Shown here piece by piece: positions 834-50,962 of a stretch of DNA of 52,628 nt; positions within the stretch are counted from its first letter, which is position 1; every line of letters begins with the position of its first letter. The DNA is from a virus (Duplodnaviria; Caudoviricetes). Made by a program: the position numbers and the translations under genes. The stretch covers positions 1-52,628 of IMG/VR virus record IMGVR_UViG_3300028840_002598, one strand, 5' to 3'. Under the pieces are notes generated by a model that made no database searches, was not told the DNA's origin, and saw only the letters and a program-made list of their open reading frames with translations.

Positions 834-1223
834 ATGGCCAGAATGATCAACATAAGCGGCGAGGCGCAAACCCTCACGATCGCCGGCAACCCGGGCACGC
901 GCCCGCTGGTGGTAAAACTCGAGCCCGGCCAGGACCACGATTTCGCGGACGGCTATTGTGTGCCCGTCAAGGCCGCACGCCGGACGCCGTTCCCGTCCGT
1001 GATCGAGCGCATGAGCGCACGCCGCACGGGCGGCGGCCTCCCGGAGCCCACCGTGGTGCCCGTGGGGAGCGATGCACACAAGGAATGGCTGGCGAAGCAA
1101 GGCAAGCCGGCCCCGGTGCGCAAGCGCAAGCGCAAGCCAGCGCCCCCAGCTCGCGCCCCACAGCCCGAAGCGCCGCCCCCCACCGCTGAGGTGGAGGAGT
1201 TGACGGAGGGCGAGGAGGACTAG
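834..1223 (+). CDS. Hypothetical head-associated protein with basic/Pro-rich then acidic tail
   Basis: GACACAGGAG RBS at 815-824 and ATG 834; directly after the capsid gene. Confidence 0.7.
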   Translation: MARMINISGEAQTLTIAGNPGTRPLVVKLEPGQDHDFADGYCVPVKAARRTPFPSVIERMSARRTGGGLPEPTVVPVGSDAHKEWLAKQGKPAPVRKRKRKPAPPARAPQPEAPPPTAEVEELTEGEED

Positions 1224-1226
1224 CCT

Positions 1227-1643
1227 GTGGCCCTCACGGACGAACAACGCGCGGAGGTTCGCATGTTCCTGGGGTGGACGCCCCGGTTTGGACAAACGGA
1301 CAACGCGCTGGAACGCGCCATGAACGCGATCGCCACGTTCCCCGCGGACGAATCGCTGATCACGAACGCGATCGGCGATGACCCCCCGGGCCTCCTGGCG
1401 TCCCTCAAGGACGTCGACACCAAGCTGGTGGGCGGCCACGGCCGCCTCAAGGCGGACAACGTGGGATCGATCAAGCTGAACCGGCGCGAAATGGTCCAAC
1501 TGTACCGCGAGGGCAAGCGCCTGGTGGGGCGCCTCGCGCGCGTCCTCGGTGTGGAGGTTCGCGGCGGCCCGTTCGATGGCGGCCGCGGACTCCGCGCGAG
1601 CTACTACGGGCCAGCGGCCCGCAACTACATGGCGCAGGGATGA
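1227..1643 (+). CDS. Putative head-tail adaptor
   Basis: 138 aa; position and helical composition; GAGGAGG RBS. Confidence 0.6.
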   Translation: MALTDEQRAEVRMFLGWTPRFGQTDNALERAMNAIATFPADESLITNAIGDDPPGLLASLKDVDTKLVGGHGRLKADNVGSIKLNRREMVQLYREGKRLVGRLARVLGVEVRGGPFDGGRGLRASYYGPAARNYMAQG

Positions 1644-1674
1644 TCGCGATCTTGAAACCCAACGTTTTCGGCAA

Positions 1675-1731: not shown

Positions 1732-1755
1732 GAACCACTAGCACGGAGCGAGCTA

Positions 1756-3797: not shown

Positions 3798-5351
3798 ATG
3801 GCGCAGGATGTCTATTTCACCTCGAACCCGGCCGAATTCACCCAGGTGGAGGGCCTCTATGTAGTCGAGAAAGATCCGCCCGGATTCATTCAGGGCGCGG
3901 ATCTTGGTGCCACCGGCATCGCGGGGATCTGTGTCCGCGGCCCGTCCACGGTTCAGTGGATTTCGTCGACGGCGCGCTTCCTGGAGGTGTACGGCGGCCG
4001 CGATCGTGGCTCCGGTGGCGCGCTGGTGGGCGAGGTGTGGCGCTCGCTCCTCAATAAGCGATTCGGATCGCTGTACATCCGGCGCGTGATCGCAACGGAC
4101 GCGGACACCGGCCACGTCCACGTGGAGGAGGGCGTCGACGGCGCCGGAACCGAGGTGCTGAAAGTCGCCGCCAGCTCCCCGGGCGACTGGGCGGCGGACG
4201 TGGGTTGGAAGGTTGAGGACGCCTCGGACGGGGACGCCAATCACTTCAACCTGGTGGTGCGCTACCTGGGGGAAACCGTCACCTACGAAAACCTGAACAT
4301 TAAAACGGCCAGCGATGACAACCTGGCCGAGGTGATCGGGGATGACGTGGCCAACTGGGTGACCGTCACCAAGCTGGCGGACGGCCGCCCGGCGAACAAT
4401 TCCACGGTGACGGAAACCGATTTCGTGGCCGCGCGGGACGCGGACGATTTCGTCCAGATCGCGGCCATCGGCGCGGCCTACACCACGAACGTGGGCGATG
4501 ACGGGACCGCGGTTTCCGCGGACTACATCTCCGCGATCACCGATCTGGCCTACACTCCAGGCCCCTATTGCTGTTTCGTCGCTGGCGCCTCCGTGGACCA
4601 GAACGCCCTCAACGGGACGCTGGTCACCCTGGCGCCGCTGGTGGCGGACAAGGCGTTCCTGACGTGGAGCGGAACCCACGGCCAGGTGGTGGCCACCGAG
4701 AGCGCGAACAAGGGGACGGACATCACCACGGCCTCCGGGCGGATCTGGTGGTGCTTCAACTCCGCTTACACTCTGGACCCGGAAACGGGCCTGGAGATCC
4801 AAGTCCCGCCACACGAATGGATGGCCGGCATCTGTTCGCAAACGGACGTCGACGTCCACCCGGGCGATCGGGCCAATGCGCAATACTGCGCCGGCATCCG
4901 GCGCCTGGCGAACGAAACCCTGACCAGGGCGGACCTGGTGGCGCTCCGCGCCGCTGGCATCTCCACCCTGGAGAAGCTACCGGACGGCGCGTTCCTGTTC
5001 CGCTCCGCGGTGGTCACGGACACCACCACCGGCAAAACCGAGATCGCCCGGCGCCGGAGCGCGGACTATCTGATCCTCAGCGCCTCGGACCGGCTCCGCT
5101 ACTACGTGAAAAGCAAGAACACGCTGGAGAACCGGGCACAGATGGCCGGCGAGCTGGTGGCGTTCTCCAATGCCCTCAAGGACGCATCGCGCATCATTGA
5201 GGATTTCGCGATCGATCAGTCCATGAACACGGACGCGAGCCGGGGCCAGGGCATCGAGAAAATTCGGTGGGACGTTCGGCTGATCGGCCACATGCTCCAC
5301 CTGATCCTCGAAAGCACGATCGGGACCACGGTCACGATCGAGGAGTCATAG
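3798..5351 (+). CDS. Tail sheath protein
   Basis: 517 aa; GLYVVE, GICVRGP, ASSPGDW, PPHEWMAG, RRRSADY; AGGAG RBS. Confidence 0.9.
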   Translation: MAQDVYFTSNPAEFTQVEGLYVVEKDPPGFIQGADLGATGIAGICVRGPSTVQWISSTARFLEVYGGRDRGSGGALVGEVWRSLLNKRFGSLYIRRVIATDADTGHVHVEEGVDGAGTEVLKVAASSPGDWAADVGWKVEDASDGDANHFNLVVRYLGETVTYENLNIKTASDDNLAEVIGDDVANWVTVTKLADGRPANNSTVTETDFVAARDADDFVQIAAIGAAYTTNVGDDGTAVSADYISAITDLAYTPGPYCCFVAGASVDQNALNGTLVTLAPLVADKAFLTWSGTHGQVVATESANKGTDITTASGRIWWCFNSAYTLDPETGLEIQVPPHEWMAGICSQTDVDVHPGDRANAQYCAGIRRLANETLTRADLVALRAAGISTLEKLPDGAFLFRSAVVTDTTTGKTEIARRRSADYLILSASDRLRYYVKSKNTLENRAQMAGELVAFSNALKDASRIIEDFAIDQSMNTDASRGQGIEKIRWDVRLIGHMLHLILESTIGTTVTIEES

Positions 5352-5404: not shown

Positions 5405-5848
5405 ATGTCGCTGAGAATTCGAGGCCAGGAAGTAACCATGAGGGTTGCTGTGGACGGCCAGATCCAGGAGGGGAGCTTTTTCAAAGCTACCGATTTCACC
5501 CTGACCGAACGCGGGGATCTCATGGAGGAGGATTTCCTGGGGGAGCTGGAGTCCGATCTGGACTTTCAGCACCACGGCTATGATCTGAGTTTCACGGTCC
5601 AGCACCAGGACCGCAAGGTGATCGATTTCCTCCAAACGATCGTAAGCCGCGAGGCGAACCAGCAAGCGCACCCGGCGATCACGATCACCGTGATCTATGC
5701 CTACCGCGAGCGCGGCGAAACGCCGGCGATCCACGTCCTCCAGGAGGTGTTCCTCCGGCCCACGGAGATCTCATTCGGTGGGCGCAAGGAATACGTGTCC
5801 ACGCCGTTCGAGGGCAAGTGCAAAAAAGCCTTGCCCATGTCCGCCTAG
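5405..5848 (+). CDS. Tail tube protein
   Basis: 147 aa beta-rich ORF directly after the sheath. Confidence 0.8.
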   Translation: MSLRIRGQEVTMRVAVDGQIQEGSFFKATDFTLTERGDLMEEDFLGELESDLDFQHHGYDLSFTVQHQDRKVIDFLQTIVSREANQQAHPAITITVIYAYRERGETPAIHVLQEVFLRPTEISFGGRKEYVSTPFEGKCKKALPMSA

Positions 5849-5890
5849 CAGGCTCGAGCCCGCTAGCAACCACCAGACACAGGAGTGATC
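5845..5890 (+). promoter_or_regulatory. Composite intergenic element CTAGCAGGCTCGAGCCCGCTAG plus CCACCAGACACAGGAGTGATC
   Basis: 17-bp identity with 41185-41201; 21-bp identity with 20558-20578. Confidence 0.7.
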
Positions 5891-14170: not shown

Positions 14171-14623
14171 ATGACGGCCCTGGACGGAGAACTGGTCCCG
14201 TTTCCAACCGCAACCGGAAGCGGGGACCGCTCGCACAGCGCGGGCGGTTACAAGGTGCCGGTAAGCGCCGGGCCGGACGCCACCGCTCCGACGATCACGA
14301 ACATGACGCCGGCGCCTGGTGTGTTCCCCGGTTCGCGCTACACGGCGAGCCGGACGCCGATCGAATTCGACGTGGAGGACCCGGCGCCCGGGATCCGCCT
14401 GGTGCTGGTCACCCTGAAATATGCGCGCCGAAACGAAACCCTGATCGTCTATGACGGATCGCAATTCGTTTACCCGTTCGATTCGGGCTCGAGCCTGGTC
14501 ACCTCGATCGCGAACGGCTATCACTTCAAAGTCCTACCGCGCGCCGGCTGGGAATCCGACCTGGATCAGCTCTGGGTGTATGCGCTGGACAGCGACGGGA
14601 ACATGGAGGACGGTTTGCCATGA
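14171..14623 (+). CDS. Ig-like virion protein (putative)
   Basis: DATAPTITNMTPAPG ... VYALDSDGN Ig-like boundaries; GGAGG RBS. Confidence 0.5.
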   Translation: MTALDGELVPFPTATGSGDRSHSAGGYKVPVSAGPDATAPTITNMTPAPGVFPGSRYTASRTPIEFDVEDPAPGIRLVLVTLKYARRNETLIVYDGSQFVYPFDSGSSLVTSIANGYHFKVLPRAGWESDLDQLWVYALDSDGNMEDGLP

Positions 14624-18928: not shown

Positions 18929-20509
18929 GTGGGCCGCACTTTTCTCCGTCAAGACACCCAGATCCGAAACTCCAGCACCTACGGGGACGCCGTTGCGCCC
19001 TCCGAGGCGAACTACGAAACGAACCCGGGGGACCTGGAAACGGATCTGAACAATATCCGCTCCCAGCTCCACAACCTCCTCAAGGACCAGGCCGGCAACT
19101 GGTGGGACGATCTCAACGTTCCGTCCACCCTCGAAACCGGCTCCCAGCGCGGCGTGAACGATCTGAACAGCGATCTCCACGCCGTGGAGAAAAAGCGCGT
19201 TCTCCGGGATGTCCACAACCTCACGGACGTGTCCGTGGGCGGTTCGGACAATTTCGTGATCCTCGGAGCCGGCGAGCTTCCGGCCCAGACCACCGCGGCG
19301 GTGGGCGCGGTCACCACGCTGGGCACGGTTGTGGCCGCGCACGGCGGGACGTTCGGAACCCACGCCCTCAGCGAGGTGGCCGGGCCGCACGCGCTGAACC
19401 CGCTCAACCTGTGCGAGATCGTCGACGGCGCTACCCGCGATCCCATTCTGTCCGACGCGCGCAAGGTTTATGGCCTACTTCAGGGCGAGGACGGCCTGGT
19501 GGACGGCGACACGATCACGGACAGCACGGACAACCGCGTCCAGATTTCGTTTGTGCGCCAGAACAGCGCCGGCGATGACCTGGAGGCGTGCCCGGCCGCG
19601 GACATTCAGGGCAAAACGATCAACTACTCCACCCGCGAGCGCGTCCGCCTGGAGGATCTGAACGAACACGATTTCCTCACCGGCGCCGTGGTCGACGTGG
19701 GCGCCGGCTCCGGCACGATCAACCGGCAAACCTCCTACTCAAACCAGGGGACCACGCCGGTCGACGCAACCGTCAACGCCATCCTGGACCTGGAGGGCGC
19801 GGGCCTCGAATGGCAAATCCGCGATGACCTGGAGGCGATCCTGTTCCGGGTGATCGAGGGCTCCGCGGGCGGCACCAGCAAGGTGGCCGTGGAGGATGAC
19901 GTCGACGAATTCGACGTCGACGCGGTGGTGTCGGACTTCCTGAACGGCATCAAGGTGGACACCGGCGCGGCCGGAACCACGATCAACATTGGCGTAACGG
20001 CGAACCAGATCGACACCACCGGCGCGCTCACCGTTCAGGGCGCCGGAGATGTCAAGATCGCCTCCACCGGCGGAAACCTCCGGCTCACCGATCAATACGA
20101 GCCGGCCGGCTGGTCCGAGGACGGGATCCAGCTCTCGGACGCCGCGCAAACCTGGACCGATTTCGAGGCCGCCTTTGGGGAGGTTGGCCTCATGGACGCG
20201 ATCCTCCAGGCATACCAGGGCGCCAATTTCGACAAAACCTATGCCTCGGTTACCTCCACCACCGTGGCGGACACGGACGTGGGGGGCGTTGCCGGCGGCA
20301 CGAACCTGGACGCCCAGCTCCACGATCTCAGCGGTGGCACGTTCGCCGATGATCATGACGTGTACCTAAACGGCCAGCTCCTCCGCTCCGGCGCGGACGC
20401 GGCCGCGAATCACGACGTGTACCCGGGAACCTCGCTTCCAAACGGCCAGCTCAAGTTCGAGTTTACGGTTCGAGTCAATGACGTGATCTGCGTCATTTCT
20501 CGCGCCTAG
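18929..20509 (+). CDS. Large acidic virion fibre/appendage protein
   Basis: 526 aa D/T/G-rich; C-terminal VYLNGQLL module shared with 23048-23500. Confidence 0.7.
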   Translation: MGRTFLRQDTQIRNSSTYGDAVAPSEANYETNPGDLETDLNNIRSQLHNLLKDQAGNWWDDLNVPSTLETGSQRGVNDLNSDLHAVEKKRVLRDVHNLTDVSVGGSDNFVILGAGELPAQTTAAVGAVTTLGTVVAAHGGTFGTHALSEVAGPHALNPLNLCEIVDGATRDPILSDARKVYGLLQGEDGLVDGDTITDSTDNRVQISFVRQNSAGDDLEACPAADIQGKTINYSTRERVRLEDLNEHDFLTGAVVDVGAGSGTINRQTSYSNQGTTPVDATVNAILDLEGAGLEWQIRDDLEAILFRVIEGSAGGTSKVAVEDDVDEFDVDAVVSDFLNGIKVDTGAAGTTINIGVTANQIDTTGALTVQGAGDVKIASTGGNLRLTDQYEPAGWSEDGIQLSDAAQTWTDFEAAFGEVGLMDAILQAYQGANFDKTYASVTSTTVADTDVGGVAGGTNLDAQLHDLSGGTFADDHDVYLNGQLLRSGADAAANHDVYPGTSLPNGQLKFEFTVRVNDVICVISRA

Positions 20510-20523
20510 TTAGGCTCGAGCCC

Positions 20524-20557
20524 ACCGGGCGCCGTTGACACGCGGCGCCCGGTTTTT
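20524..20557 (+). terminator. Intrinsic terminator
   Basis: 11-bp stem ACCGGGCGCCG/CGGCGCCCGGT followed by a T run. Confidence 0.75.
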
Positions 20558-20583
20558 CCACCAGACACAGGAGTGATCAGCGA

Positions 20584-28422: not shown

Positions 28423-28460
28423 GGCCCCCGCTAGATTCACCCTGGCGGGGGCCATTTTTA
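28423..28460 (+). terminator. Intrinsic terminator
   Basis: 12-bp stem GGCCCCCGCTAG/CTGGCGGGGGCC then ATTTTTA. Confidence 0.8.
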
Positions 28461-28473
28461 TGGGCGGTTTTAC

Positions 28474-28503
28474 TTGCCTCCGCTTTTACTGTGGTCCTAC
28501 AAT
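28474..28503 (+). promoter_or_regulatory. Sigma70-type (probably early) promoter
   Basis: TTGCCT-N18-TACAAT in a conspicuously AT-rich patch. Confidence 0.65.
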
Positions 28504-31901: not shown

Positions 31902-32461
31902 GCGATCCGGATGACTGGTATCACGAGGAGGGCCGCGCGATGCCGTGGACCTATGAGGCCGCGGTGGAGCGCATCCTGGAGGAGGCGGACAAGCCCGGCG
32001 AAATTCTCGAGCCCGGCTACGCCCGCGATCGCGCCCGCGTTGCCGCGCGCGTTGCTCCGCTGGTGATTCGCATCGAACGAATGATCCACACGCTTCCGCT
32101 GGACACGCTGTCCGAGCTGGAGGCTATCCTCACCCCTTACGATCAACCGACACAGGAGGCACAGATGACACCTGAACGCAAGGGCAACTTGACCGCGTTC
32201 CTCACCATTCGATCGGACATGCCGCGCCCCAAGGACGCGCCGGAGGACTGGACGCCGCGCGTGGTCGCGGACCAGGAGGCCGCGGACTGGAGGGAGGCGG
32301 GTTACAGCGCCCGGGTGTATTCTCGCGCGCTGTGCGCCGATGGCGAACGCCTGGACGTGTGGTGCGTCCTGGTGCGCGAGCCCGTGGATCTGTCCACACC
32401 TGTGGACAGCGCTGTGGACGCGGAGGGCGGCGCGGACGATAACTTGACGCCGGCCGGCTAA
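31898..32461 (+). CDS. Hypothetical protein with probable in-frame internal start at 32165
   Basis: GTGA overlap; internal GACACAGGAG at 32149-32158 six nt before an in-frame ATG. Confidence 0.55.
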   Translation: MSDPDDWYHEEGRAMPWTYEAAVERILEEADKPGEILEPGYARDRARVAARVAPLVIRIERMIHTLPLDTLSELEAILTPYDQPTQEAQMTPERKGNLTAFLTIRSDMPRPKDAPEDWTPRVVADQEAADWREAGYSARVYSRALCADGERLDVWCVLVREPVDLSTPVDSAVDAEGGADDNLTPAG

Positions 32462-32479: not shown

Positions 32480-32749
32480 ATGGGTGGACGGAACGGCGCA
32501 CACGGCCCCCGCTCGCGCGGGCGGCCTCGCAAGTACCCCCAACCCTCTAGCGCGTTTTCCGCGTGGCTCAAGGAGTGGCTGGAGGTTGACGGGAACACAA
32601 TCCACGGCCTCGGGCGCTCCCTCGGGATCAGTCCGTCGACCGTGTACAATCTGAGGAACGGATACTTTCCACCGGGACGCCAGCTCGCGATCTCCATCGC
32701 GCGCGAAAGCGGCGGCGCCGTCCCGGTGGATTCCTGGGATCCCAAGTAG
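32480..32749 (+). CDS. Cro/XRE-like HTH regulator with AT-hook
   Basis: RGRPRK; LGRSLGISPSTVYNLRNG..P..LA..I..GGAV....W. Confidence 0.85.
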   Translation: MGGRNGAHGPRSRGRPRKYPQPSSAFSAWLKEWLEVDGNTIHGLGRSLGISPSTVYNLRNGYFPPGRQLAISIARESGGAVPVDSWDPK

Positions 32750-32765: not shown

Positions 32766-33749
32766 GTGGGCAATCCGCGCAACTGGGCAAAGTTGGACGC
32801 CCTCCTGTGGTCCAACCCGAAGATCCTCCGCTTGCCGCGCCGGGAGCGCTGGTGGGCCGGGATCGTGTTCAAGCAACTACTCCTGATCAACCGCGCGCAC
32901 CGGTGCGACGGCGAGATCCCGGCGAGCCTCGCGGACCCGGCATTCCTCGCGGCCGCGTGCCACCTGGAGGACGCGCCGTTCCTGGACAAACCGCCTCACG
33001 ATCTGATCCGGTTCGGGCTCCGGGCCGCCACCAGGGCGAACCTGATCGCCGGCCTGGAGGACGGTCCCGGATGCCAGATCGTGGGCTGGGGGCCGGAATG
33101 GTCGCGGAGCCCGGACACGTCCACGGAGCGCGTGCGGCGCTACCGGGCACGCCAGAAAGCGGCCAAGGAGGCGGAACAACAGTCCCTCCCCCTCCCCGGG
33201 GCCGGAAACGGTGAAACGGACGTAACGGACGGAAACGCCGGGAACGGAGTAACGCACATAGAGGAGAGGAGAGGAGAGGAGAGGGATCCTACGGATCCCC
33301 CCTCCGAGATCCCGGAGGGGGGCAAGGAGGAGCCCGAGGGAAAGCCCAAGGCCAAGAGGGCGGCTCCGGAGATCCCGGAGATGGCCCACACCCTCGCCCA
33401 GCTCCTCGCGGATTTCGTGGTGGAGAACGTCCCCGGCTCCGTGTTCGCTCACCTATCGCCCAAGCAACGGGCCGCCCGGGTGATCAAGTGGGCGGACGTG
33501 GTGCGCCTCATGCACAGTCAGGACGGCCATTCCTGGGTGGACATTGAGGGCGTGATCAACTGGTGCCAGCGGGATGATTTCTGGCGAACCACGGTCCAGT
33601 CCGCGGAGGGCCTCCGGCGCAACTGGGATGCCATCCTGGGGGCGAGGATCAAGCGCGGCAACGGCAAGCCCAAGGACGTGCGCGTGGGGCGCGCGGAGCC
33701 CGCAAGCCGCGAGGAGTGGGAGCGGGAACCCGAGGAGGGGGTGGTCTAA
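32766..33749 (+). CDS. Replication initiator protein
   Basis: N-terminal W.KLD, STERVRRYRARQK, VT..EERR linker, C-terminal WCQRDDFW..V.S..LR..WD; upstream of a loader ATPase. Confidence 0.8.
   Translation: MGNPRNWAKLDALLWSNPKILRLPRRERWWAGIVFKQLLLINRAHRCDGEIPASLADPAFLAAACHLEDAPFLDKPPHDLIRFGLRAATRANLIAGLEDGPGCQIVGWGPEWSRSPDTSTERVRRYRARQKAAKEAEQQSLPLPGAGNGETDVTDGNAGNGVTHIEERRGEERDPTDPPSEIPEGGKEEPEGKPKAKRAAPEIPEMAHTLAQLLADFVVENVPGSVFAHLSPKQRAARVIKWADVVRLMHSQDGHSWVDIEGVINWCQRDDFWRTTVQSAEGLRRNWDAILGARIKRGNGKPKDVRVGRAEPASREEWEREPEEGVV
33201..33330. other. Candidate replication origin inside the initiator gene
   Basis: Six AACG-core repeats, GAGGA/GAGGG x5 purine run, then CCCCCCTCCG..CGGAGGGGGG hairpin; lambda-O-like location. 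Confidence 0.5.
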
Positions 33750-34402
33750 TGGCGAAGCGCACAGGAGCGGGCGGCCCGGTGAAGCTCGCGCCGGTTCTGC
33801 GATCGATCGCGAGGACGTGGGAGGAACGCGATCAGGAGATTGTGGCGGACCGCGAGGAGCGCGAGCGCCGCGAGGAGCGCGAGCGCGCGAAGCGATGGCG
33901 CAACCGCGTGGTAATGGGAGGCGCTCCTCCGCGGAGGCTTGAGGAGGCGCTGGTGGCGGACTCCTCGCCGGCGATCGATGCCGTGGGCAAGTGGACGCCG
34001 GAGCGGAATATCCTGGTTCTAGCCGGGCCGGTAGGCGTAGGCAAAACCGTGGCGGCCGTGCGGTGGCTCCTCGAACGCGAGTCCGGCTCCCCGCTGTTCG
34101 TGCGCGCTCCTGAATTCGAGGCCCGCGGCCGCTACGATCACGAATTCCGCGCGCTGTGGAAGCGTGCCACGGCCATGGTGCTGGACGATCTGGGCGTGGA
34201 ATACGCGGACGCCCGCGGCAACCTGGTGGCGAACCTGGACGAATTGGTGGACTACTACAGCGGGCGCCACGCCGGCCTGGTTATCACCACGAACCTAACG
34301 GACAAGGCGTTCCGCGAACGCTATGGCGAGCGCATCGCATCGCGCGTCCATGCGTTCGGCAACTGGCGCAACGTGCGAGGGCCGGACCGGAGGCGATCGT
34401 GA
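33749..34402 (+). CDS. DnaC/IstB-like helicase loader ATPase
   Basis: GPVGVGKT, VLDDLG.E, ITTNL, YGERIASR, GPDRR. Confidence 0.9.
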   Translation: MAKRTGAGGPVKLAPVLRSIARTWEERDQEIVADREERERREERERAKRWRNRVVMGGAPPRRLEEALVADSSPAIDAVGKWTPERNILVLAGPVGVGKTVAAVRWLLERESGSPLFVRAPEFEARGRYDHEFRALWKRATAMVLDDLGVEYADARGNLVANLDELVDYYSGRHAGLVITTNLTDKAFRERYGERIASRVHAFGNWRNVRGPDRRRS

Positions 34403-35265
34403 TCGTTCGAGGTGACTCCCAGAAGCTCCTCCGCAAGCTCCGCGAAGGATCGGTCGACCACGCGATCGCCGATCCACCCTACTCGGATCACGTTCACAAG
34501 TGCGGCCGCCGTGGCTGTACCGGCTACACGGAGCCCACGCGGCCAGGAGCAACCCGCGCACAGTTCAATCGCACGCGCGATCTTGGTTTCGATGCGCTCA
34601 CCGAGGATCTCCGGGCGTTCGTGGCGCGCGAACTGGTCCGCGTTGTGCGCCGGTGGATCCTGGTGTTCACCGATCACGAGGGCGGCGAGGGGTGGAAACA
34701 GGACATCGTGAAAGCGGGCGGCGAATTCGTCCGGTTCGGCGTGTGGCACAAGCTGGGCGCCGCGCCCCAGTTCACCGGTGATCGGCCAGGCGCAGGCCAT
34801 GAGGTGATCGTGATCGCCCACGCGCCGCGGCCCAAGGGCGTGCGACTCCGCTGGAACGGCGGCGGCCGTCATGCGTTCTGGGAATTCCCGATCGTCCTGA
34901 ACCGCTCCGGCCAGGACCCGCGCCTCCACACCACACAGAAACCACTCCCCCTCATGGAAGCGCTGATCAAGGACTTTACCGATCCCGGGGAATCGGTCCT
35001 GGATCCGTTCGCCGGCTCCGGCACCACCGCCGCGGCCGCCAAGCGCCTGGGGCGCAACGCCCTGGGGTTCGAGGTGGATCCGAACTATGCGCGCAAGGCA
35101 CAGGAACGGCTGGAGGCCACGTCCTATCAGGGCGATCTGTTCGCGAGTCACCCGGCCAAGGCCCCCAAGGCGGACCAGCTCGCGCTTGACATCGGCGCAA
35201 CGCCTCCAGCTCGCGGAGGCGAACCGGCCAGCGTGGGAGCGCCAGCGGCGAGCGAGGCGGAATAG
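34399..35265 (+). CDS. DNA amino-methyltransferase (N4-C/N6-A, beta class)
   Basis: DPPY precedes HTTQKP and VLDPFAGSGTT; GGAGG RBS and GTG. Confidence 0.9.
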   Translation: MIVRGDSQKLLRKLREGSVDHAIADPPYSDHVHKCGRRGCTGYTEPTRPGATRAQFNRTRDLGFDALTEDLRAFVARELVRVVRRWILVFTDHEGGEGWKQDIVKAGGEFVRFGVWHKLGAAPQFTGDRPGAGHEVIVIAHAPRPKGVRLRWNGGGRHAFWEFPIVLNRSGQDPRLHTTQKPLPLMEALIKDFTDPGESVLDPFAGSGTTAAAAKRLGRNALGFEVDPNYARKAQERLEATSYQGDLFASHPAKAPKADQLALDIGATPPARGGEPASVGAPAASEAE

Positions 35266-35268: not shown

Positions 35269-35796
35269 ATGGCTGTGGCTCGCGATCCTGATCGTTGCCC
35301 TCCTGGCGGTTTGCTTCTCCGGTTCACGGTGAACGGCAACCCGAGGCCGCAAGGATCAAAGCGCGCCCTCCCCGTGGGGAAACCGTGCCCGGTGTGCAAG
35401 CGCTCGCGCACCGTGCTGGTGGAACACGCGGACGCGAAGCTAAAGCGCTGGCGCAAGGACGTGACCACCGCGGCGCGCGAGGCATGGGGCGGCCGCGCTC
35501 CACTGGATCAACCGCTGATCCTCGGAGCCCGGTTCCTGTTCCCTCGCCCTCCCTCCCACCTGAAAAAGTCCGGCGGCCTCCGCAAGGGCAAGCCCCAGAC
35601 GAAACAGGACGCGCCGGACTTGTCCAAGCTGGTGCGCGCTGTGGAGGACGCCCTCACGGACGCCAAGGTGTGGACGGACGATCAGCGCGTGGTGGGCTAC
35701 TCCACGATCGCCAAGGACTACACCCGGGACGCGCACGCCATCGGCGTGGAGGTGGTGGTCCAGTCCTGGGATCCGCTGTGGGAGGTTGGCCGGTGA
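35269..35796 (+). CDS. rusA: RusA Holliday junction resolvase
   Basis: G.PRPQGSK, F.RP.SH, PDLSKLVRAVEDALT..WTDDQRV; start uncertain. Confidence 0.9.
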   Translation: MAVARDPDRCPPGGLLLRFTVNGNPRPQGSKRALPVGKPCPVCKRSRTVLVEHADAKLKRWRKDVTTAAREAWGGRAPLDQPLILGARFLFPRPPSHLKKSGGLRKGKPQTKQDAPDLSKLVRAVEDALTDAKVWTDDQRVVGYSTIAKDYTRDAHAIGVEVVVQSWDPLWEVGR

Positions 35797-36729: not shown

Positions 36730-37064
36730 CCACCCGCGATCCATACGAACCACCGCTGTGCGAGGACTGTGGCGCCCCCATGCCGGCCGCGGAATGGGAG
36801 GCATGGCGTAAGGTGCCCGGCGTCCAGGGCTCCGGGTTCGGCCTCGCGCTTGGCCCCATGTATCACTGTGGGTGCGTGCGGCGAGCGCAAGCAACCGCGC
36901 GCGATGCCACCCAGATGACCGAAGCGATCAAGCTCCTGGGGCGCGCGTGTGAAGCGCTCGAACAGATCAACGCAACCCTGGAACGCCACCTGGAGGCCGC
37001 GGAAAAGCTCCTCCGGCCTCCTGGCGTTCCTCATTCAAGGCGAGGGGAGAAGCGCAAGCGATGA
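36726..37064 (+). CDS. Zn-finger plus coiled-coil protein (paralog of 39054-39623)
   Basis: CEDCG..M.A.EW ... HCGC. Confidence 0.6.
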   Translation: MTTRDPYEPPLCEDCGAPMPAAEWEAWRKVPGVQGSGFGLALGPMYHCGCVRRAQATARDATQMTEAIKLLGRACEALEQINATLERHLEAAEKLLRPPGVPHSRRGEKRKR

Positions 37065-37465
37065 CAAGCGGAGCGGAGAAGCGAGCGCGCATCCGACGCA
37101 ACCGAATCACGGAGGAGTGCCGGCACTTCCACGGGATCCGGGTGGCCAAGTGCGAGGCCGGCGTGGTTTATCGGGACGTGTGGGGCGATGGCGCCCCGCG
37201 CGCGCTTCCGTGCCTCGCCATCCCGGGCAAGTGCGAGCGCCTGGACACGTGCGACAAGTACGATCCATTGACTGAGGAGGAGGTGGAGGCGCGCGAGCGC
37301 GAGATCGAACGGCGGGTGGAGGAGATGATCGCGAAGCTCAAGGCGAACATTTGCCCGGTGTGCGATCGGCCGATCAGGGCTCGAGCCCGGCAAGGCCGTT
37401 GCGTCTATGCCGTGCCGTGTGGCCACCGCCTTGGACAAGCCATGCGAAAGGAACACAAGCCATGA
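37061..37465 (+). CDS. Cys-rich hypothetical protein
   Basis: CRHF..C..PC..C; CPVC..C..PCGH. Confidence 0.7.
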   Translation: MTSGAEKRARIRRNRITEECRHFHGIRVAKCEAGVVYRDVWGDGAPRALPCLAIPGKCERLDTCDKYDPLTEEEVEAREREIERRVEEMIAKLKANICPVCDRPIRARARQGRCVYAVPCGHRLGQAMRKEHKP

Positions 37466-40933: not shown

Positions 40934-41188
40934 ATGCCCGGAAACGTTCACGCCCTCCGGCGCACGCCGGCGACATTGGAGGAATTCCACGCCGTCCTCG
41001 ATCAGGGGATAGCGCATGGAGCGAGGGCCGGCGTTCTGATCCTTGCCTATCCCGAGGACCAGGCGCCGGAGGGCGGAACGTGGGAGGCGTTCGGAACGGA
41101 CGGCATGAACGGCGCGGAGCGCACGTTCATATATCAGCAATTGATCCTGATCGAAATCAGCTCACAGGATGACGGCGGCGACGGCTAG
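40934..41188 (+). CDS. Hypothetical protein
   Basis: Operon spacing and codon usage. Confidence 0.55.
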   Translation: MPGNVHALRRTPATLEEFHAVLDQGIAHGARAGVLILAYPEDQAPEGGTWEAFGTDGMNGAERTFIYQQLILIEISSQDDGGDG

Positions 41189-41219
41189 CAGGCTCGAGCC
41201 CACGACGCAGGAGGAACGG

Positions 41220-44098: not shown

Positions 44099-44307
44099 GC
44101 ATGATCGTTCCACTCCTGTGGCTGTACCTGATCGGCCTGGCGCTCCACGTTCCCGTCCTGGTGATCGTGGCGTGGAGAATGATGCGCGACCCGAAGCACG
44201 AAAGCGCGCGCACCACGATCCTGGCCGCGGGGATCTGTGCCGTGCTGTGGCCCCAGACGATCACCGTGGTGATCAGGGAGATGGCGCGCGGTGGAGTGGA
44301 CCGCTGA
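44095..44307 (+). CDS. Small two-TM membrane protein
   Basis: Two hydrophobic helices with LWP motif. Confidence 0.6.
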   Translation: MSMIVPLLWLYLIGLALHVPVLVIVAWRMMRDPKHESARTTILAAGICAVLWPQTITVVIREMARGGVDR

Positions 44308-45703
44308 ACTAGACGCGCGCCTGGCCGATCTCCTCCGGCTCGAACACGCCGCGGAACCGCTGGCCGATTTCATTGGGCGCGTGAGTCCGCGCCTACCACC
44401 GCCGGCGCACCTCAAGCCGGCGATCGATCTGTTCGAGCGGACCCGGCGCGGACCGGTGCGCGCCGTCCTGGAGATGCCACCACGGCACGCCAAGACAACC
44501 ACGGCCATGCACGGGATCGCCTGGCGCCTCATGCTGGACCCGGCGCTGACTCACTGTTACGCCACCTACGCGGACGCCCTCAGCGTGTCCAAGTCCAGGA
44601 TCGCGAGGAACCACGCGCGCGGCGCCGGCGTCCAGCTCGCAAGGGACCAGCAAAACCTCCACGAATGGCGCACGGTGGAGGGCGGCGGATTTCTGGCCAC
44701 CGGCGTGGGCGGCCCGCTCACCGGCCAAGGCGTCACCGGCGTGGCGATCGTCGATGACCCCCTAAAGAACCGCAAGGAGGCCGAATCGGTGACGATTCGG
44801 GAGGCGATCTGGGACTGGTTCCGGGATGTCCTGTGGACCCGCCTAGAGGATGACGCCTCCGTGATCGTGATCCAAACCAGGTGGCACCCCCAGGACTTGA
44901 TCGGCAAGATCCTGGCCGAGGGCGTGGACGGCGTGGCATTCGAGCGCGTCCGGCTCCCCGCGATCTGTGAGGAGCCCGGCGATCTACTCGGGCGCGCCGT
45001 GGGCGATGCGCTGTGGCCGGAGCGCTACCCGGTGGAGAAGCTCGCGGAGATTCGCTCGCTCCTCGGGGCCTATGGCTGGTCCTCGCTGTATCAGCAACGG
45101 CCGCGGCCACGCGGCGATCAACTGTTTTACGAGCCCGGCCGGTTCGATCTTGAGGATTTCAAGCTGGACGGCCATCGCGTGATCATCGTATGCGACCCGG
45201 CCGCCACCGAATCCACCCGGGCGGATTTTTCCGCCGTCCTGGTCCTGGCGGCCAAGGGGTGGGGCGCGGATATGCGCGTGTGGGTGATCGATCACTTCCA
45301 CAAGCAAACCACCGTTCCCAAGCTGGTGCGGCGCCTGGGGCAATTCCAGCGCCTATGGTATGGCGTCCCGATCGGCGTGGAGGCCGTGGGCGGGTTCAAG
45401 GCGATCCCGGACATGCTCAAGGAACACGATCCCCAGCTCCGGCTCCTGGACATCAAGCCGGTGGGCGACAAGTTCACCCGGGCACAGCCGGCCAGCTCCG
45501 CGTGGAATGAGGGCCGGATCCTGATTCCGCGCGATCGTCCATGGGCCGCCGGACTGATCCAGGAGTGCCAGGACTTCACCGGCGTGAAAGATGACCATGA
45601 CGATCAGGTGGATTGCCTAGCACACGGGTTCAACGTACTATTCGCGGCGAAGCAACCACGGCGGCGCCGGGTTAGGCGCGCCACACACGCGCCATTCGGC
45701 TAG
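44291..45703 (+). CDS. terL: Terminase large subunit
   Basis: MPPRHAKT Walker A, IVDDP Walker B, IQTRWH, YQQRP, CDPA and HDDQVD nuclease motifs. Confidence 0.95.
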   Translation: MEWTAELDARLADLLRLEHAAEPLADFIGRVSPRLPPPAHLKPAIDLFERTRRGPVRAVLEMPPRHAKTTTAMHGIAWRLMLDPALTHCYATYADALSVSKSRIARNHARGAGVQLARDQQNLHEWRTVEGGGFLATGVGGPLTGQGVTGVAIVDDPLKNRKEAESVTIREAIWDWFRDVLWTRLEDDASVIVIQTRWHPQDLIGKILAEGVDGVAFERVRLPAICEEPGDLLGRAVGDALWPERYPVEKLAEIRSLLGAYGWSSLYQQRPRPRGDQLFYEPGRFDLEDFKLDGHRVIIVCDPAATESTRADFSAVLVLAAKGWGADMRVWVIDHFHKQTTVPKLVRRLGQFQRLWYGVPIGVEAVGGFKAIPDMLKEHDPQLRLLDIKPVGDKFTRAQPASSAWNEGRILIPRDRPWAAGLIQECQDFTGVKDDHDDQVDCLAHGFNVLFAAKQPRRRRVRRATHAPFG

Positions 45704-46729: not shown

Positions 46730-48544
46730 ATGGCCCTCGAAACGCAGGTCGACCACGAATTGAAAGGGCTCCGCAAGGTGGCCGAACGGGCGGACGAAAT
46801 CACCGGCGCCAAGTACAGCGGGCGCGGGTCGCTCATGGACGGGCTCCTGGAGGCGTCCCCCGAGGAGCGCGCGGTGGCCTGGAAACACTTTCAGCGCCGG
46901 CACCCAGACTATGACGCGGAATATTGGGCGGAATGCCGCGCCCTCTATGCCGGCGGAAAGCGCCTCCTCCGCGACCCGGAGCTAATGGAGCGCCTGTTCC
47001 CTCCGCACAACGCTGAGGACGCCTCCGTCTATGAGGAGCGGAAGCGCCGCGCGTTTTACCTGGCCTACCCGGGGACGATCATCGATAACCTGGTGAGCGG
47101 ACTCGGGGCGGATCCGGTGCGCGTCACGGGCGCGGACGCCGGCGAGGATGAAACCAAGCTCCCTGACTGGTACACGGACGGGGACACCGGGTTCCTGGAG
47201 AACGTGGCGCCCAAGGGCGGCAAGCGCCAGGGATTCGCCCAGCTCCTCCTGGACACCGTGCGCGAGGCCATGATCTCCGGCCGCGGGTGGATCCTGATCG
47301 ATCTCCCACAAACGCCGGACGAATACGTCCCGGAGTCCAAGCTGGACCAGGAGCGCGCGGGACTCCTCGATCCCTACCTGATCGGAGTTGAGCCGGAATA
47401 CGTGATCGACTGGCAAGTGGACAGCAACGGGGAGCTGGAGTGGGCGCTGGTTTGCGATTCGGAAGTCCGGCGAAACTCGCTCACCGAGGAGCGGAACACG
47501 ATCCGAAAAACGTTCACGTGGTACGACCGCGCCGGGTGGACATCGTGGCGGATCGAATACAGAAAAGGCGAGCGCCCTGGCGACGATCAGCCGGTGCCGT
47601 TCCTCGGTGAGGGCTCGCACCCGTTCGGCAAGGTGCCGTTGATCCCGTTCCTCCTCCCCGAGGGACTCCACGCCATGGGCAAGCTGGAATCCCTGGCGCG
47701 CGAACATTTCAATAAACGGTGCGCGGTGAGCTGGGCGGAATTCAAGTCCCTGTTCGCCATGCTTTATGAATTCCTGGCACCGGAGGACGGCATCGCCTCG
47801 ATCTCCAGCGATGCCCAGCAAGATCCGGATCGCGCCGTGTCCCAAGTGCGAGGCCCTGGCCACGTCCAAGAGCGCGGCCATGAGGACCGCGCCGAATTCG
47901 TGGGGCCACCCGTCGATCCGTTCGTGGCCGGGCGCGAGTCCTGTCAGGAGATCATGCGGGAAATGCACCGGGTCATGTATTCGATGGCCCTCAGCGTGGA
48001 CATGAACAGCGCGGCCGTGCGGCGCTCCGGCGAGTCCAAGGCGCAGGACCGCGCCGTGGCCGCCGTGATCCTCAAGGAACTGGGCCGCCTCCTCCGGGAC
48101 CTGGTGCGCCTCCTCATGGAGCTGGTGGCCATCGCGCGCGGTGACGGGCAAACGTTCCGCGTGTCCGGCCTGGACAGTTTCGACGCCGTCGACGTCACCG
48201 CGGCGATCACCGAGGCCGTGGAATTCCTCAACGGCGTGCCCCAGAAGTCCGCCACGTTCAAGCGGGCGTTCCTATATCGCCTGTACAAGCTGATCCTGGG
48301 GGACGAATTGACGGAGGAGGAGCTGGCGACGATCCGCAAGGAACTGGAGGAAATGATCACCATGGAGGAGGCCCTCCTGGAGGACTCCATGGCCTTGATG
48401 GCTCGCGGCGCCGCGGCCGCCGGCGAGGATGGCGAGGACGATCAGGAGGAGGAGGACGGCGAGGAGGACGCGGAGGAGGAGCGCAAGGCGCGCAAGGCCG
48501 CCGCGGACGGAAAGCCGGTTCGATACTCCACGTTCTCCAAATAG
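46730..48544 (+). CDS. Portal protein
   Basis: 604 aa; HP.Y..W, Y..RK.RA, GRGWILID, VIDW, HPFGKVP, RSGESK; between terL and MuF. Confidence 0.9.
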   Translation: MALETQVDHELKGLRKVAERADEITGAKYSGRGSLMDGLLEASPEERAVAWKHFQRRHPDYDAEYWAECRALYAGGKRLLRDPELMERLFPPHNAEDASVYEERKRRAFYLAYPGTIIDNLVSGLGADPVRVTGADAGEDETKLPDWYTDGDTGFLENVAPKGGKRQGFAQLLLDTVREAMISGRGWILIDLPQTPDEYVPESKLDQERAGLLDPYLIGVEPEYVIDWQVDSNGELEWALVCDSEVRRNSLTEERNTIRKTFTWYDRAGWTSWRIEYRKGERPGDDQPVPFLGEGSHPFGKVPLIPFLLPEGLHAMGKLESLAREHFNKRCAVSWAEFKSLFAMLYEFLAPEDGIASISSDAQQDPDRAVSQVRGPGHVQERGHEDRAEFVGPPVDPFVAGRESCQEIMREMHRVMYSMALSVDMNSAAVRRSGESKAQDRAVAAVILKELGRLLRDLVRLLMELVAIARGDGQTFRVSGLDSFDAVDVTAAITEAVEFLNGVPQKSATFKRAFLYRLYKLILGDELTEEELATIRKELEEMITMEEALLEDSMALMARGAAAAGEDGEDDQEEEDGEEDAEEERKARKAAADGKPVRYSTFSK

Positions 48545-48547
48545 CTC

Positions 48548-50962
48548 ATGGCCGATCCGCACACCACCGGCGCGCCGTTCGTGCCCCCCGGGCACTATCG
48601 GCCACCCGGGCGGGATGCGCCGCTGTTCCCCGCCATGGGAAAAAGCGCGCGCGTCCAGCGAATGCTGGAACAGATCGCGGGCGAGGTTGCCGGGCTCGAG
48701 CCCGCTGTGATGCGAAAGCTCCTCCCCGTGTTCATGGAGGCGCGATCGGAATTGCGGAGCGCGCTCACCGAATGGCTCAAGGGCAAGGACGGCGCCGCGC
48801 GTTTCACCGCGCAACAATACCGGCGCGCCCTGGTGAACCTGGAGGGAGCCCTCCGCACCATGGCGAAACTCGATCCGGCAATGCGCGCCGCGCTTGAGGA
48901 CGGCGGGAACGTTGCCGGCCACCTCGCGGCGGAACACCTCGAATTTGAGCTGGCCCGGTTTGCCTCCGCGTTCGGTGAAACGATCCGGCCGATCCAGATC
49001 CAAACGGCGGCCATCATGGCCAAGGGCGATCGCTTCCTGATCCCCAGGTATCGAACCAGCGCGGCCCGCTACGCTGGCAACGTCATGGAGGACATTGGAC
49101 ACCAGCTCTCCGTGGGCGTGGCGCGTGGCGAAACATACACCCAGATGACGAACAGGCTCCGGCGCCTCGGAGGGCCTCGCGGCCTGGTGGCGCTCCGTGG
49201 AGTCCGCGGCGAACCCGGGGCCGTGGTGGAGGAGATCACGGAGGGCCTGTTCCGGCGCTATCGCAACTGGGGGGAGCGCGTGGTCCGCACGGAAATGCAG
49301 AACGCATACAACGTCCACGCGGACAACGGGATCGACGAATTGAACCAGATCGCACGCGAGCCCAAGGAGGCCCGGTTCCTCAAGCGCTGGGATGCGAGCG
49401 CGGACAAGCGCTTGTGTCACGTGTGCCGCGGCCTCGATCGCCAGGCCGTGCCCCAGGACGGCAAGTTCCACAGCGAGCTGGGCGAGCATGACCGGCCGCC
49501 GGCGCACCCGAATTGCCGGTGTATCATTTCGCCGTGGCTCAAGCGCTGGGGGAACGTCAAGCGGCCCGAGGAGCCCACGCCGATCTATCCGGGCAAGGAG
49601 GGCAAGGCGGCCAAGCCGAAGCGGCCCAAGGCCAAGCCGAAGCGCGCCAAGGCACCGGCCAAGCCGAAGCGCAAGGAGTTGACGGGCGCCCAGAAAGTCC
49701 GCGAACTGGAGAAGCTATCCGATCAGCGGGACACGCTGGCGGCCCGCGTGCGGGATCCTGGTGGAACCGAGGACATCCGGCGCGAGATCAAGGGCGTGGC
49801 CGCGGCGGCGAAAAAGGGAAAGATCCCGTTCGATACCTACCTGGAACGCTTGCGCGGCCTCAACGCCAAGCTGGACGCGGCGATCAAGGTGCAACCGGAG
49901 CCCGCGGACCTGTTCAAGCTGGACGCCATCAAGGAGGACATCTCCGCGCTACGCGCCACCGTGCGGCCCCAGGAGTGGCTGGACGCCCTGGTGGACGCCG
50001 GGACGGCCGGCAAGCAAGGCAAGTGGAAGCGCGCACGCCTGGCGCTGGAGGGCCACCTGGAGGCGAGCGAGGGGATCACCAGACAAGCCCACGAATGGGA
50101 TCACTCCGTGGCGCTCGCCAAGAACCACCGCTCCCTGGGGACTCACTACTGGAACGGCAAGATCAAGATCCGGACCGCGCAAGCCGAACACGGCAAGAAA
50201 TACCTGGACGCCTGGAAAGCGGACCCCAAGGCGGTGGAGGCCGTGGCCCGCGACTATGAGGCGAAGCGCCTGGCGATCCCCAGGCTCGAACGCGATCGCG
50301 ATCGGTTCCTGGCGCGCATGGATAAGGTGGAGGCCAAGATCACGGACATGAGCGCGGACATGGAGCGCGCTCGCGAGGCCAAGGACTGGGACAAGGTGGC
50401 CAAGCTCCGCAAGCGCCGCAACCTCCTCCGGGATGGCTGGGAGGAAATGGACCAGAAACTCCAGGCCACGTTCCGCGAGATCGACTCCACCCGCGGCGCG
50501 CTCCGAAAGCACGCCGGCGCGGAGCTGGCCAGGGACGTGGAGGGTTTGTCGACCGTGGTCCATGAGGTTGTCCACGGCACCGGCCCCAACTTTCGATACT
50601 CGGGGATCGGCGTGGCGTTGGAGGAGGTGACAACGGAGGCCACCGCGCGCCTATACCTCCAGCGAAATTTCGCCCTCCAGCGCGGCCTCGCCACCCGCGG
50701 CGTGTCTTATGACTGGTTCTTTGAGGAACAGATCAAGGCCATCCGTGAGGCTTACGGCGTCACGGAGCGGGTGGCCTGGGACATGCTGGAGTCCGCCTCG
50801 CTCAAGTTCAAGCGCGTGGCCTCCAGCTCCACCATGATGTCCGCGGAGGACGCCGCGGATCTGTTCGTGCGCCAGTTCAAGGACGGGGCGAAGCACAAGG
50901 AAGCGCTGATCCAGGGCCTCCGTGAGGGAATGAAACGACAACCCAGTTACCTGGCACAGTGA
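48548..50962 (+). CDS. MuF/SPP1 gp7-like minor head protein with C-terminal HExxH metallopeptidase-like extension
   Basis: RVVRTE..AYN, KRW..D.R.C..C..LD, PPAHPNCRC; then HEVVH (50561-50575) and LEEVTTE. Confidence 0.85.
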   Translation: MADPHTTGAPFVPPGHYRPPGRDAPLFPAMGKSARVQRMLEQIAGEVAGLEPAVMRKLLPVFMEARSELRSALTEWLKGKDGAARFTAQQYRRALVNLEGALRTMAKLDPAMRAALEDGGNVAGHLAAEHLEFELARFASAFGETIRPIQIQTAAIMAKGDRFLIPRYRTSAARYAGNVMEDIGHQLSVGVARGETYTQMTNRLRRLGGPRGLVALRGVRGEPGAVVEEITEGLFRRYRNWGERVVRTEMQNAYNVHADNGIDELNQIAREPKEARFLKRWDASADKRLCHVCRGLDRQAVPQDGKFHSELGEHDRPPAHPNCRCIISPWLKRWGNVKRPEEPTPIYPGKEGKAAKPKRPKAKPKRAKAPAKPKRKELTGAQKVRELEKLSDQRDTLAARVRDPGGTEDIRREIKGVAAAAKKGKIPFDTYLERLRGLNAKLDAAIKVQPEPADLFKLDAIKEDISALRATVRPQEWLDALVDAGTAGKQGKWKRARLALEGHLEASEGITRQAHEWDHSVALAKNHRSLGTHYWNGKIKIRTAQAEHGKKYLDAWKADPKAVEAVARDYEAKRLAIPRLERDRDRFLARMDKVEAKITDMSADMERAREAKDWDKVAKLRKRRNLLRDGWEEMDQKLQATFREIDSTRGALRKHAGAELARDVEGLSTVVHEVVHGTGPNFRYSGIGVALEEVTTEATARLYLQRNFALQRGLATRGVSYDWFFEEQIKAIREAYGVTERVAWDMLESASLKFKRVASSSTMMSAEDAADLFVRQFKDGAKHKEALIQGLREGMKRQPSYLAQ

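Follow-up and report, generated by a model that had tools for sequence, protein, structure and literature searches.

Nine flanked CTCGAG sites in a tailed-phage genome: a possibly maintained symmetric word amid restriction-site avoidance

The avoidance of restriction sites in phage genomes is well established, as discussed by Rusinov et al. (2018; PMC6286503). Here we analyse the XhoI-type hexamer CTCGAG in a complete tailed-phage genome of 52,628 bp (IMG/VR record IMGVR_UViG_3300028840_002598, Caudoviricetes; this whole stretch of DNA is called the window below), in which nine copies persist, all in one sequence context. As in other phages that avoid restriction sites, the loss of a 6-bp palindromic Type II site is strong and specific to the lineage, other palindromes are missing from the window as well, and the sites were lost mostly through synonymous changes. 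Unlike in these phages, the survivors correspond to one extended symmetric word, are evenly spaced and were apparently built. Among the titles retrieved from the literature, we found no report of surviving restriction sites confined to one context.

Other described systems share some features with this pattern. Overlapping methylation blocks restriction enzymes; for example, overlap with the Dam sequence GATC blocks enzymes that cut TCCGGA and TCATGA. Similarly, TCCGGA, TCATGA and GACGTC persist in the window only at overlaps with GATC or GTCGAC (one TCCGGA excepted), and all CTCGAG sites overlap GGGCTC, but the CTCGAG sites are constrained on both sides and flanked on both sides in excess, and no GGGCTC-type methylase was found. 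Kruger and colleagues reportedly described, in 1988, refractory and widely spaced EcoRII sites on T3 and T7 DNA. The window likewise has few CTCGAG sites, far apart (minimum gap 3.8 kb), and otherwise none, but spacing alone leaves its 9-12-nt context unexplained. The KorB operators of plasmid RK2 and the parS sites are dispersed palindromic sites for dimeric proteins on mobile elements. The likeness here lies in about a dozen copies of a 12-16-bp palindrome over the replicon, some of them in genes; no ParB- or KorB-like gene was found among the scanned window proteins, a set that did not include every open reading frame (ORF).

Stoperators are more numerous sites whose orientation is linked. 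In Cluster A mycobacteriophages, repressors terminate elongation at numerous binding sites across the genome, and these stoperators are asymmetric and bound by a monomeric repressor, as described in PMC9283540. The word found in the window resembles them in being short, specific and genome-wide, with three of nine copies next to stop codons. It differs from them in that six sites are palindromes, the one-sided ones are found in either orientation, there are nine copies, six of them in genes, the closest relative is without the word, and neither a repressor nor an integrase is evident in the window. The window combines elements of site avoidance, overlap blocking and stoperators without the defining features of either stoperators or simple overlap protection.

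The exact count of CTCGAG in the window is nine (positions 918, 5853, 14488, 20515, 26607, 32006, 37380, 41193 and 48695), in agreement with a preliminary description made by reading the sequence. Dinucleotide shuffles gave 18.4 +/- 4.3 copies, and synonymous codon resampling (n = 400, proteins and the window's own codon usage kept) a mean of 36.8 (sd 5.3, minimum 22), none of the 400 resampled genomes having nine or fewer; the depletion is therefore stronger than the shuffles indicate. Five relatives were compared, one identified via its terminase (a virus contig hereafter called G001) and four more distant ones via the portal protein. They carry 132 (G001), 82, 121, 87 and 30 CTCGAG, 452 in total. 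At 97 aligned G001 sites, the window has mostly silent variants, such as CTGGAG (19), CTCGAA (8) and CTGGAA (5). CTCGAG is far rarer than composition or codon usage predict, the relatives keep it and the losses are mainly silent: it has been purged in the window's own lineage. Restriction by an XhoI-type enzyme in the host range would be the probable purging force. Pressure from AvaI-type (CYCGRG) or SmlI-type (CTYRAG) enzymes was considered and set aside, since CCCGGG, CTCGGG/CCCGAG and CTCAAG are not depleted. The related word CTCGAC/GTCGAG, of which a single copy had been noticed, indeed occurs once, compared with about 30 copies expected, and is absent from G001.

All nine survivors carry GGG on the 5′ side or CCC on the 3′ side, as had been claimed, with a base rate of 0.069 for either side and a binomial tail of 3.7e-11; the exact k-mer count found no CTCGAG in any other context. 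In G001, by comparison, only 13 of 132 CTCGAG have such a flank, no more than the base rate. Every survivor thus overlaps one short motif, GGGCTC/GAGCCC (9/9). The nonamer GGGCTCGAG is present 11 times over both strands of the window and covers all nine sites, as against 1.17 +/- 1.09 in shuffles, of which 0 of 100 reach 11. When the 18 flanks are oriented toward the hexamer, they read GGG (11), AGG (4), AAA (2) and ATT (1). C never occurs at -1 (0/18), though it is the commonest flank in G001; after (A/T)TCGAG in the window, the next base is G in 62% of cases.

Six of the nine sites are flanked on both sides and correspond to RGGCTCGAGCCY (RGG-CTCGAG-CCY), whereas the other three correspond to GCCGGGCTCGAG (GCCGGG-CTCGAG) followed by an A/T tract, TTT, TTT or AAT. 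The second flank is therefore RGG in six cases and A/T-only in three, and does not vary freely as a non-protecting flank should. The double-flanked word GGCTCGAGCC is found six times in the window and 0, 1, 0, 0 and 0 times in the five relatives; resampling predicts about 0.12 coding copies where three are observed, and none of 400 resamplings reaches the total of six. The frame RGGC-N4-GCCY has 19 copies in the window, with CTCGAG as the core in six of them, which indicates that the core itself is specific. The sites occupy three reading frames as well as spacers, and the one-sided ones are in both orientations, so that the constraint concerns DNA rather than protein or RNA. Neither degenerate-core palindromes nor GGGCTC half-sites with other spacers occur in the window.

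The full palindromes at 37377-37388 (GGGCTCGAGCCC) and 48691-48704 (CGGGCTCGAGCCCG), both pointed out beforehand, are real. It is also true that the 16 nt of 915-930 recur exactly, in inverted orientation, at 26600-26615; this identity is unremarkable in itself, because repeated 16-mers number 112 in the window and about 25 in fifth-order Markov simulations, and for the same reason we dropped the 16-17-nt identities between pairs of sites as exceptional. A resemblance of the motif to the T-arm of transfer RNA (tRNA) was also dropped, the sites being in both orientations and inside genes. The word GAACGGC lies within 100 nt of six of the nine sites, but its distance varies and the sharing is within the null range. 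A scan of viral contigs for the 14-nt form of the motif returned at least 119 stretches with one place each, which corresponds to the chance level, and no other phage with a cluster; the single places matched on two strands correspond to the 16-nt palindrome CCGGGCTCGAGCCCGG.

The nine sites (Table 1) bear marks of construction when compared with G001. Ahead of site 1 stand GTA, which makes up 3% of Val codons, and AAA, 21% of Lys codons, and G001 has different residues at this place (VIVVPPG). At site 3, the window encodes S G S S L and G001 S T E S E. The same residues are encoded at site 5 by GGC CTC GAA TTT in G001, so that the window's GGG (from GGC) and GAG (from GAA) are window-specific synonymous states. 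Site 6 lies within a 14-residue insertion relative to G001; the insertion with the site (31985-32014) reads AGCCCGGC-GAAATTCTCG-AGCCCGGC, an 8-nt direct repeat, suggesting that it arose by a small duplication or slippage. Site 7 uses three consecutive rare codons, AGG GCT CGA (shares 0.06, 0.04 and 0.07), where G001 has GAG GCG CGC. Only site 9 is also CTCGAG in G001 (ACG GCC CTC GAG CCT), and its flanks are complete in the window through an Ala-to-Gly change (GCC to GGG) and the change of CCT to CCC, with Leu-Glu-Pro kept. In addition, none of ten aligned GGG-flanked G001 sites survives in the window. Because one of nine sites is CTCGAG in G001 and none of these ten persists, the nine sites are not relics; the rare codons, the Ala-to-Gly change, the synonymous changes of site 5 and the insertion of site 6 show that the lineage made or completed flanked copies at some cost.

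The three intergenic sites (5853, 20515 and 41193) have in common CTAG(C/TT)AGGCTCGAGCCC(R)C, in which TAG is the stop codon of the upstream gene; three of the nine sites are thus located 4-5 nt past a TAG stop. The G001 spacer that corresponds to site 2 reads TTCGAGCCCGGG. Site 4 is followed by an intrinsic-terminator-like hairpin with a T run (about 20524-20557), and the gene after site 8 starts at ATG 41220, preceded by AGGAGG.

The sites are also evenly spaced. The circular gaps are 4935, 8635, 6027, 6092, 5399, 5374, 3813, 7502 and 4851 nt, and their coefficient of variation is 0.235. When nine sites were placed at random 200,000 times, the probability of a coefficient as low is 9.5e-5 and that of a minimum gap as large 2.4e-4. 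The other families of sites that survive only at overlaps are visibly clustered, unlike CTCGAG.

Table 1. The nine CTCGAG sites and selected genes of the window (one-letter residues in brackets where a site is read in its gene)
Feature	Positions	Strand	Sequence	Remarks
Site 1	915-930		AAACTCGAGCCCGGCC	One flank (CCC 3′; A-tract 5′); in gene 834-1223, CTC GAG in frame (V K L E P G)
Site 2	5844-5867		CCTAGCAGGCTCGAGCCCGCTAGC	24-nt near-palindrome, intergenic; TAG 5846-5848 is the stop of gene 5405-5848
Site 3	14485-14496		GGGCTCGAGCCT	Both flanks; in gene 14171-14623, out of frame (TCG GGC TCG AGC CTG)
Site 4	20505-20523		CCTAGTTAGGCTCGAGCCC	Intergenic; TAG 20507-20509 is the stop of gene 18929-20509
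Site 5	26600-26615		GGCCGGGCTCGAGTTT	One flank; in exonuclease gene 25767-26885, in frame (A G L E F)
Site 6	32003-32017		ATTCTCGAGCCCGGC	One flank; in gene 31940-32461, in frame (E I L E P G)
Site 7	37377-37388		GGGCTCGAGCCC	Perfect 12-nt palindrome; in gene 37061-37465, out of frame (AGG GCT CGA GCC CGG)
Site 8	41184-41201		GCTAGCAGGCTCGAGCCC	Intergenic; TAG 41186-41188 is the stop of ORF 40934-41188
Site 9	48691-48704		CGGGCTCGAGCCCG	Perfect 14-nt palindrome; in Mu-F-like head gene 48548-50962, in frame (A G L E P A)
Tail sheath gene	3798-5351	+		Family scans
Probable tail tube gene	5405-5848			Position after the sheath gene only
M23 endolysin	24956-25618	+		Family scans
YqaJ/RecE-like exonuclease	25767-26885	+		Family scans
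C5-cytosine DNA methyltransferase	30110-31021	+		PF00145, E 2e-44; absent from G001; listed for context
O/DnaD-like replication initiator	32766-33749	+		Family scans
DnaC-like loader	33749-34402	+		Family scans
DNA methyltransferase, N6-adenine/N4-cytosine class	34156-35265	+		PF01555, E 5.8e-26; G001 homologue 64% identical
RusA resolvase	35269-35796	+		Family scans
Large terminase	44291-45703	+		Family scans
Portal	46730-48544	+		Family scans
Mu-F-like head protein	48548-50962	+		Family scans

We tentatively favour, at a little less than an even chance, the reading that the nine CTCGAG form a symmetric recognition site, which is positively maintained and resists an XhoI-type enzyme. In this scenario, an XhoI-type enzyme in the host range would drive the loss of CTCGAG, while the lineage would build and keep copies of one symmetric 10-12-nt word or of its one-sided form. 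The dispersed word would be read by a dimeric sequence-specific protein, DNA-binding or DNA-modifying, of phage or host origin, and the extended flanks, the occupancy or the modification of the nine copies could make them refractory to the XhoI-type enzyme. The preliminary description had offered, as one explanation, a dispersed operator- or stoperator-like site kept against restriction. A maintained site that survives the purge is indeed the part of this proposal that fits best with the flanks, the six double-flanked copies (0-1 per relative), the codon cost and the spacing, but the features that define stoperators are absent.

Several observations weigh against a maintained site. Scans of the window proteins identified no protein that binds or modifies the word, the genes unique to the window had no informative matches in family scans, and the sole helix-turn-helix candidate (32480-32749) scores under the Pfam cut-offs and has a counterpart in G001, which is devoid of the motif. 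Degenerate copies are not enriched (22 with two mismatches or fewer, compared with 17.7 in shuffles; one copy with a single mismatch), and such a lack of near-matches is unusual for a family of protein-binding sites. Six of the nine sites fall within genes, the sites have no shared placement with respect to genes, promoters or terminators, and the three intergenic copies may be copies of one element and not independent. The probabilities calculated for the spacing are generous, because the pattern was noticed before testing. The purge and the motif use the same hexamer and are both lineage-specific, which calls for either a mechanistic link or a coincidence. Finally, the comparison has a single close relative, at 75% nucleotide identity.

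The main rival explanation, a serious one that we consider possible but rather unlikely, is that the sites have no function and are passively exempted: CTCGAG would be lethal in most contexts but harmless under overlapping methylation, or where flanks made of G- or A-tracts let the XhoI-type enzyme cut it only poorly. A candidate for the protecting activity would be an asymmetric GAGCCC/GGGCTC-type methylase that modifies a base inside CTCGAG. Survival at overlaps only does occur in the same genome. All ten GACGTC of the window (1410, 4845, 4851, 10938, 19898, 19913, 21763, 25100, 25700 and 48191) overlap GTCGAC (P 3e-8), as do all eight in G001, and GATC is overlapped by TCCGGA at 12 of 13 sites (P 4e-4) and by TCATGA at four of four. 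GTCGAC and GATC are themselves enriched (45 copies vs 13.8 expected and 737 vs 517, respectively). These survivors look like a readout, from the letters of the genome alone, of two methylation targets, and since the GACGTC, TCCGGA and TCATGA patterns match overlapping methylation, the idea of overlap protection is sound as a principle. Exemption would also agree with the frequency of GAG after GGGCTC (11/66 in the window and 13/88 in G001, as neutrality there predicts) and with the number of GGG flanks, 11, which is within the range of the relatives (13, 8, 1, 2 and 0). Moreover, 17 of the 18 flanks are purine-only triplets (GGG, AGG or AAA) and the 18th lies in AAATT, so that a structural effect of the flanks is conceivable.

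The second proposal of the preliminary description, that XhoI-type sites survive only where overlapping methylation protects them, stands as far as this principle is concerned, as seen for GACGTC and for TCCGGA and TCATGA, but protection of a single flank leaves the second flank of CTCGAG and the excess of double-flanked copies unexplained. If one flank were enough, the other should be random, yet it never has C at -1 and is RGG in six of nine sites. If both flanks were needed, the neutral expectation would be well below one per genome (0-1 per relative; about 0.12 coding copies), as against six, and nine sites overall. Rare codons and amino-acid changes, moreover, created sites that easy synonymous changes could have removed, and exemption leaves the even spacing unexplained. 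Furthermore, the survivors of other purged words that start with CTC are without GGG (0/6 for CTCGGC and 1/9 for CTCGT).

Avoidance in these genomes is extreme and extends to many other words. Palindromic hexamers are absent in 28 of 64 cases from the window and in 23 of 64 from G001; in the window, observed and expected numbers are 0 and 30 for GAGCTC, 0 and 27 for CAGCTG, 0 and 19 for both AGGCCT and GGGCCC, 0 and 18 for ACGCGT, and 0 and 14 for TTCGAA. Among non-palindromic words, GAGTTC/GAACTC, GAGGTC/GACCTC and CTGAGC/GCTCAG each have no copy in the window, CTCGGC/GCCGAG has six (146 in G001) and CTCGT/ACGAG nine (71 in G001). These near-absent words suggest several further restriction specificities.

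A different explanation takes spacing alone as the reason why the sites are tolerated: the enzyme would need two sites, as in Type IIE/IIF-like systems or in a Type IV system acting on methylated sites, so that isolated sites more than about 3.8 kb apart would stay. The minimum gap of 3813 nt fits with this, and the gaps are mostly within an about two-fold range, as if only close pairs were selected against. The review PMC12707154 describes a two-site requirement for Type IIE and Type III enzymes and for a single Type IV enzyme, and it also cites refractory EcoRII sites. Such an explanation would, however, predict random flanks and relic positions, whereas a single context is observed, with six copies of the same 12-mer and only one of nine sites common with G001. 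It is improbable as an account of the sites; a two-site requirement could contribute to the spacing without being the whole story. A McrBC-like reading of the spacing was rejected, since it calls for a methylase specific to this rare word alone, an unlikely property in an enzyme of 303 residues.

The preliminary description had linked the protection more precisely to the C5 methylase encoded at 30110-31021, which would methylate GGGCTC and thereby protect the overlapping CTCGAG. This version is not supported, and we regard it as very improbable. The window has both the methylase and the CTCGAG pattern, whereas G001, in which the methylase has no tblastn match, has neither, and by reasoning only, a methylated first C of CTCGAG would be position 4 of GGGCTC. 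The closest viral homologues of the enzyme, with 65% and 64% identity and a conserved target-recognition region, are encoded by two unrelated phage contigs of 65% guanine-plus-cytosine (GC) content (G002 and G003). These contigs have no CTCGAG, and no GGGCTCGAG among their 105 and 102 GGGCTC, where about 15% would be expected. Each of them lacks 46 of the 64 palindromic hexamers, not even GCGCGC or CGCGCG being present, whereas every one of the four NGGCCN is retained, in 23-79 copies. Because NGGCCN is kept while 46 of 64 palindromic hexamers are lost, this pattern suggests that GGCC is the target of the methylase family. The window itself contains neither GAGCTC nor GGGCCC, two hexamers within the scope of a GRGCYC-type methylase, and the AGG flanks (4/18) are not GGGCTC. 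Among 5333 homologues of the methylase, none has a specificity name, and solved structures give the general fold only. The genomes with the nearest homologues outside these phages, a metagenome-assembled genome (MAG) of Planctomycetota and MAGs of Polyangiaceae, have ordinary GGGCTCGAG counts. A methylase of the RGCY type was also rejected, as it would in addition spare AG-flanked sites, which are common in G001 and absent in the window.

The second methylase (34156-35265), which does not appear in the preliminary description, is a plausible candidate for the modification of GATC or GTCGAC.

Two further explanations have little weight. The palindromes could be RNA or DNA hairpins acting as transcription terminators or as stem-loops for mRNA processing, given that three of nine sites follow TAG stops of late structural genes and that 5844-5867 is a 24-nt near-palindrome; this is most improbable, because none of five folds tested clearly exceeds shuffles in stability (z -1.0, -1.7, +2.1, -1.0 and +0.75, site 2 having -1.0 and site 8, with no stable fold, +2.1), no palindrome matches a terminator scan for a hairpin directly before a T run (the match at 20533-20547 is a separate hairpin by 20515), six of nine sites are in genes, and the one-sided sites are in both orientations though the genes are on one strand. 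Chance combined with base composition and codon usage, for which the many repeated short words of a low-complexity, high-GC genome (the 112 repeated 16-mers) might speak, is negligible in view of the flank probability of 3.7e-11, the 0/100 shuffles that reach the nonamer count and the 0/400 resamplings that reach the depletion or the double-flanked count.

The window has a terminal repeat of 144 bp and a GC content of 66%, and its + strand carries essentially all of the genes. The closest relative, G001 (52,419 bp), is collinear with it, with about 75% identity over 42.5 kb and a terminase that is 85% identical. In a terminase scan of viral and metagenome contigs, G001 was the sole close relative and none was closer than 75% identity. 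No close cultured phage was found: nucleotide comparison with the phage collection yielded no match, and at the protein level the best one had 33% identity. The nearest portal matches in genomes, 41% identical, are in a Gammaproteobacteria MAG and a Xanthobacteraceae MAG. We found no tRNA genes in the window and no convincing integrase (best match to phrog_95, E 0.0027), and the cyanobacterial HIP1 word GCGATCGC is not enriched, with 15 copies each in the window and G001.

Contigs identical to the window were present in sequencing runs and had no variant at the sites that they covered (32006, 37380, 41193 and 48695). These runs were available as contigs only (two with identical contigs, which may be the source of the record, and a third with low-depth identical pieces), a form that gives no view of starts, ends or nicks. 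Over a 138-nt segment of the terminase gene (44698-44835), the contigs of runs X1 and X2 have two alleles, similar in depth and with 15 differences between them; these samples contain two strains side by side, or a recombinant patch.

Other features of the genome were noted in passing. A tandem AGAGG repeat of about 5-6 units (33260-33290) lies within the O/DnaD-like initiator gene (32766-33749) and possibly corresponds to origin iterons; the origin of phage lambda is located inside gene O. The conserved leader word CCACCAGACACAGGAG stands directly upstream of many start codons (e.g., 5870-5884, 20558-20572 and 25745-25759), and its core GACACAGGAG has 11 copies in the window and 11 in G001; it is an extended ribosome-binding or processing motif common to both phages. 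A strong terminator-like hairpin (12 pairs, then a T run) at 28423-28503 is followed by the best sigma-70-like promoter match of the genome (TTGCCT-18-TACAAT), upstream of gene 28546, and is likely a boundary between transcription units. The word GGAGCTAATG recurs four times in unrelated genes (9797, 11326, 46978 and 51675), always on the + strand, and codes for E-L-M with a rare CTA codon. All three GGTACC are followed by AG, and two of them (16279 and 27366) have GGTACCAGGACGAAT in common. The stop codons of the 66 called genes are TAG (22), TGA (32) and TAA (12), a high share of TAG for a genome with 66% GC and depleted CTAG (40 vs 68 expected).

Beyond the recognition site proposed above, the nine palindromes might represent a new kind of genome-wide phage site, evenly spaced, refractory to restriction, created and maintained, although we hold this to be doubtful. 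They could be loading sites or roadblocks for a dimeric protein with a reach of about 3 kb on each side, which might for instance shield or organise the genome, or else attenuated restriction sites, at which occasional breaks would create hot spots for recombination by the phage's RecE-like exonuclease and its RusA resolvase. If true, the flanks of a restriction site would be recruited as a functional signal. The avoidance of restriction sites is usually treated as plain loss; here, the survivors can carry information of their own. With 132 sites in one and nine in the other, G001 and the window constitute a natural experiment in two related phages. In one reading, the survivors would expose the flanks that make an XhoI-type site safe, and hence the specificity of a methylase or of the enzyme, from sequence; in the other, they would mark a maintained and evenly spaced DNA signal. 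The three clean cases of survival at overlaps only may provide a general route, through the context of k-mers, to the methylation targets of uncultured phages and their hosts.

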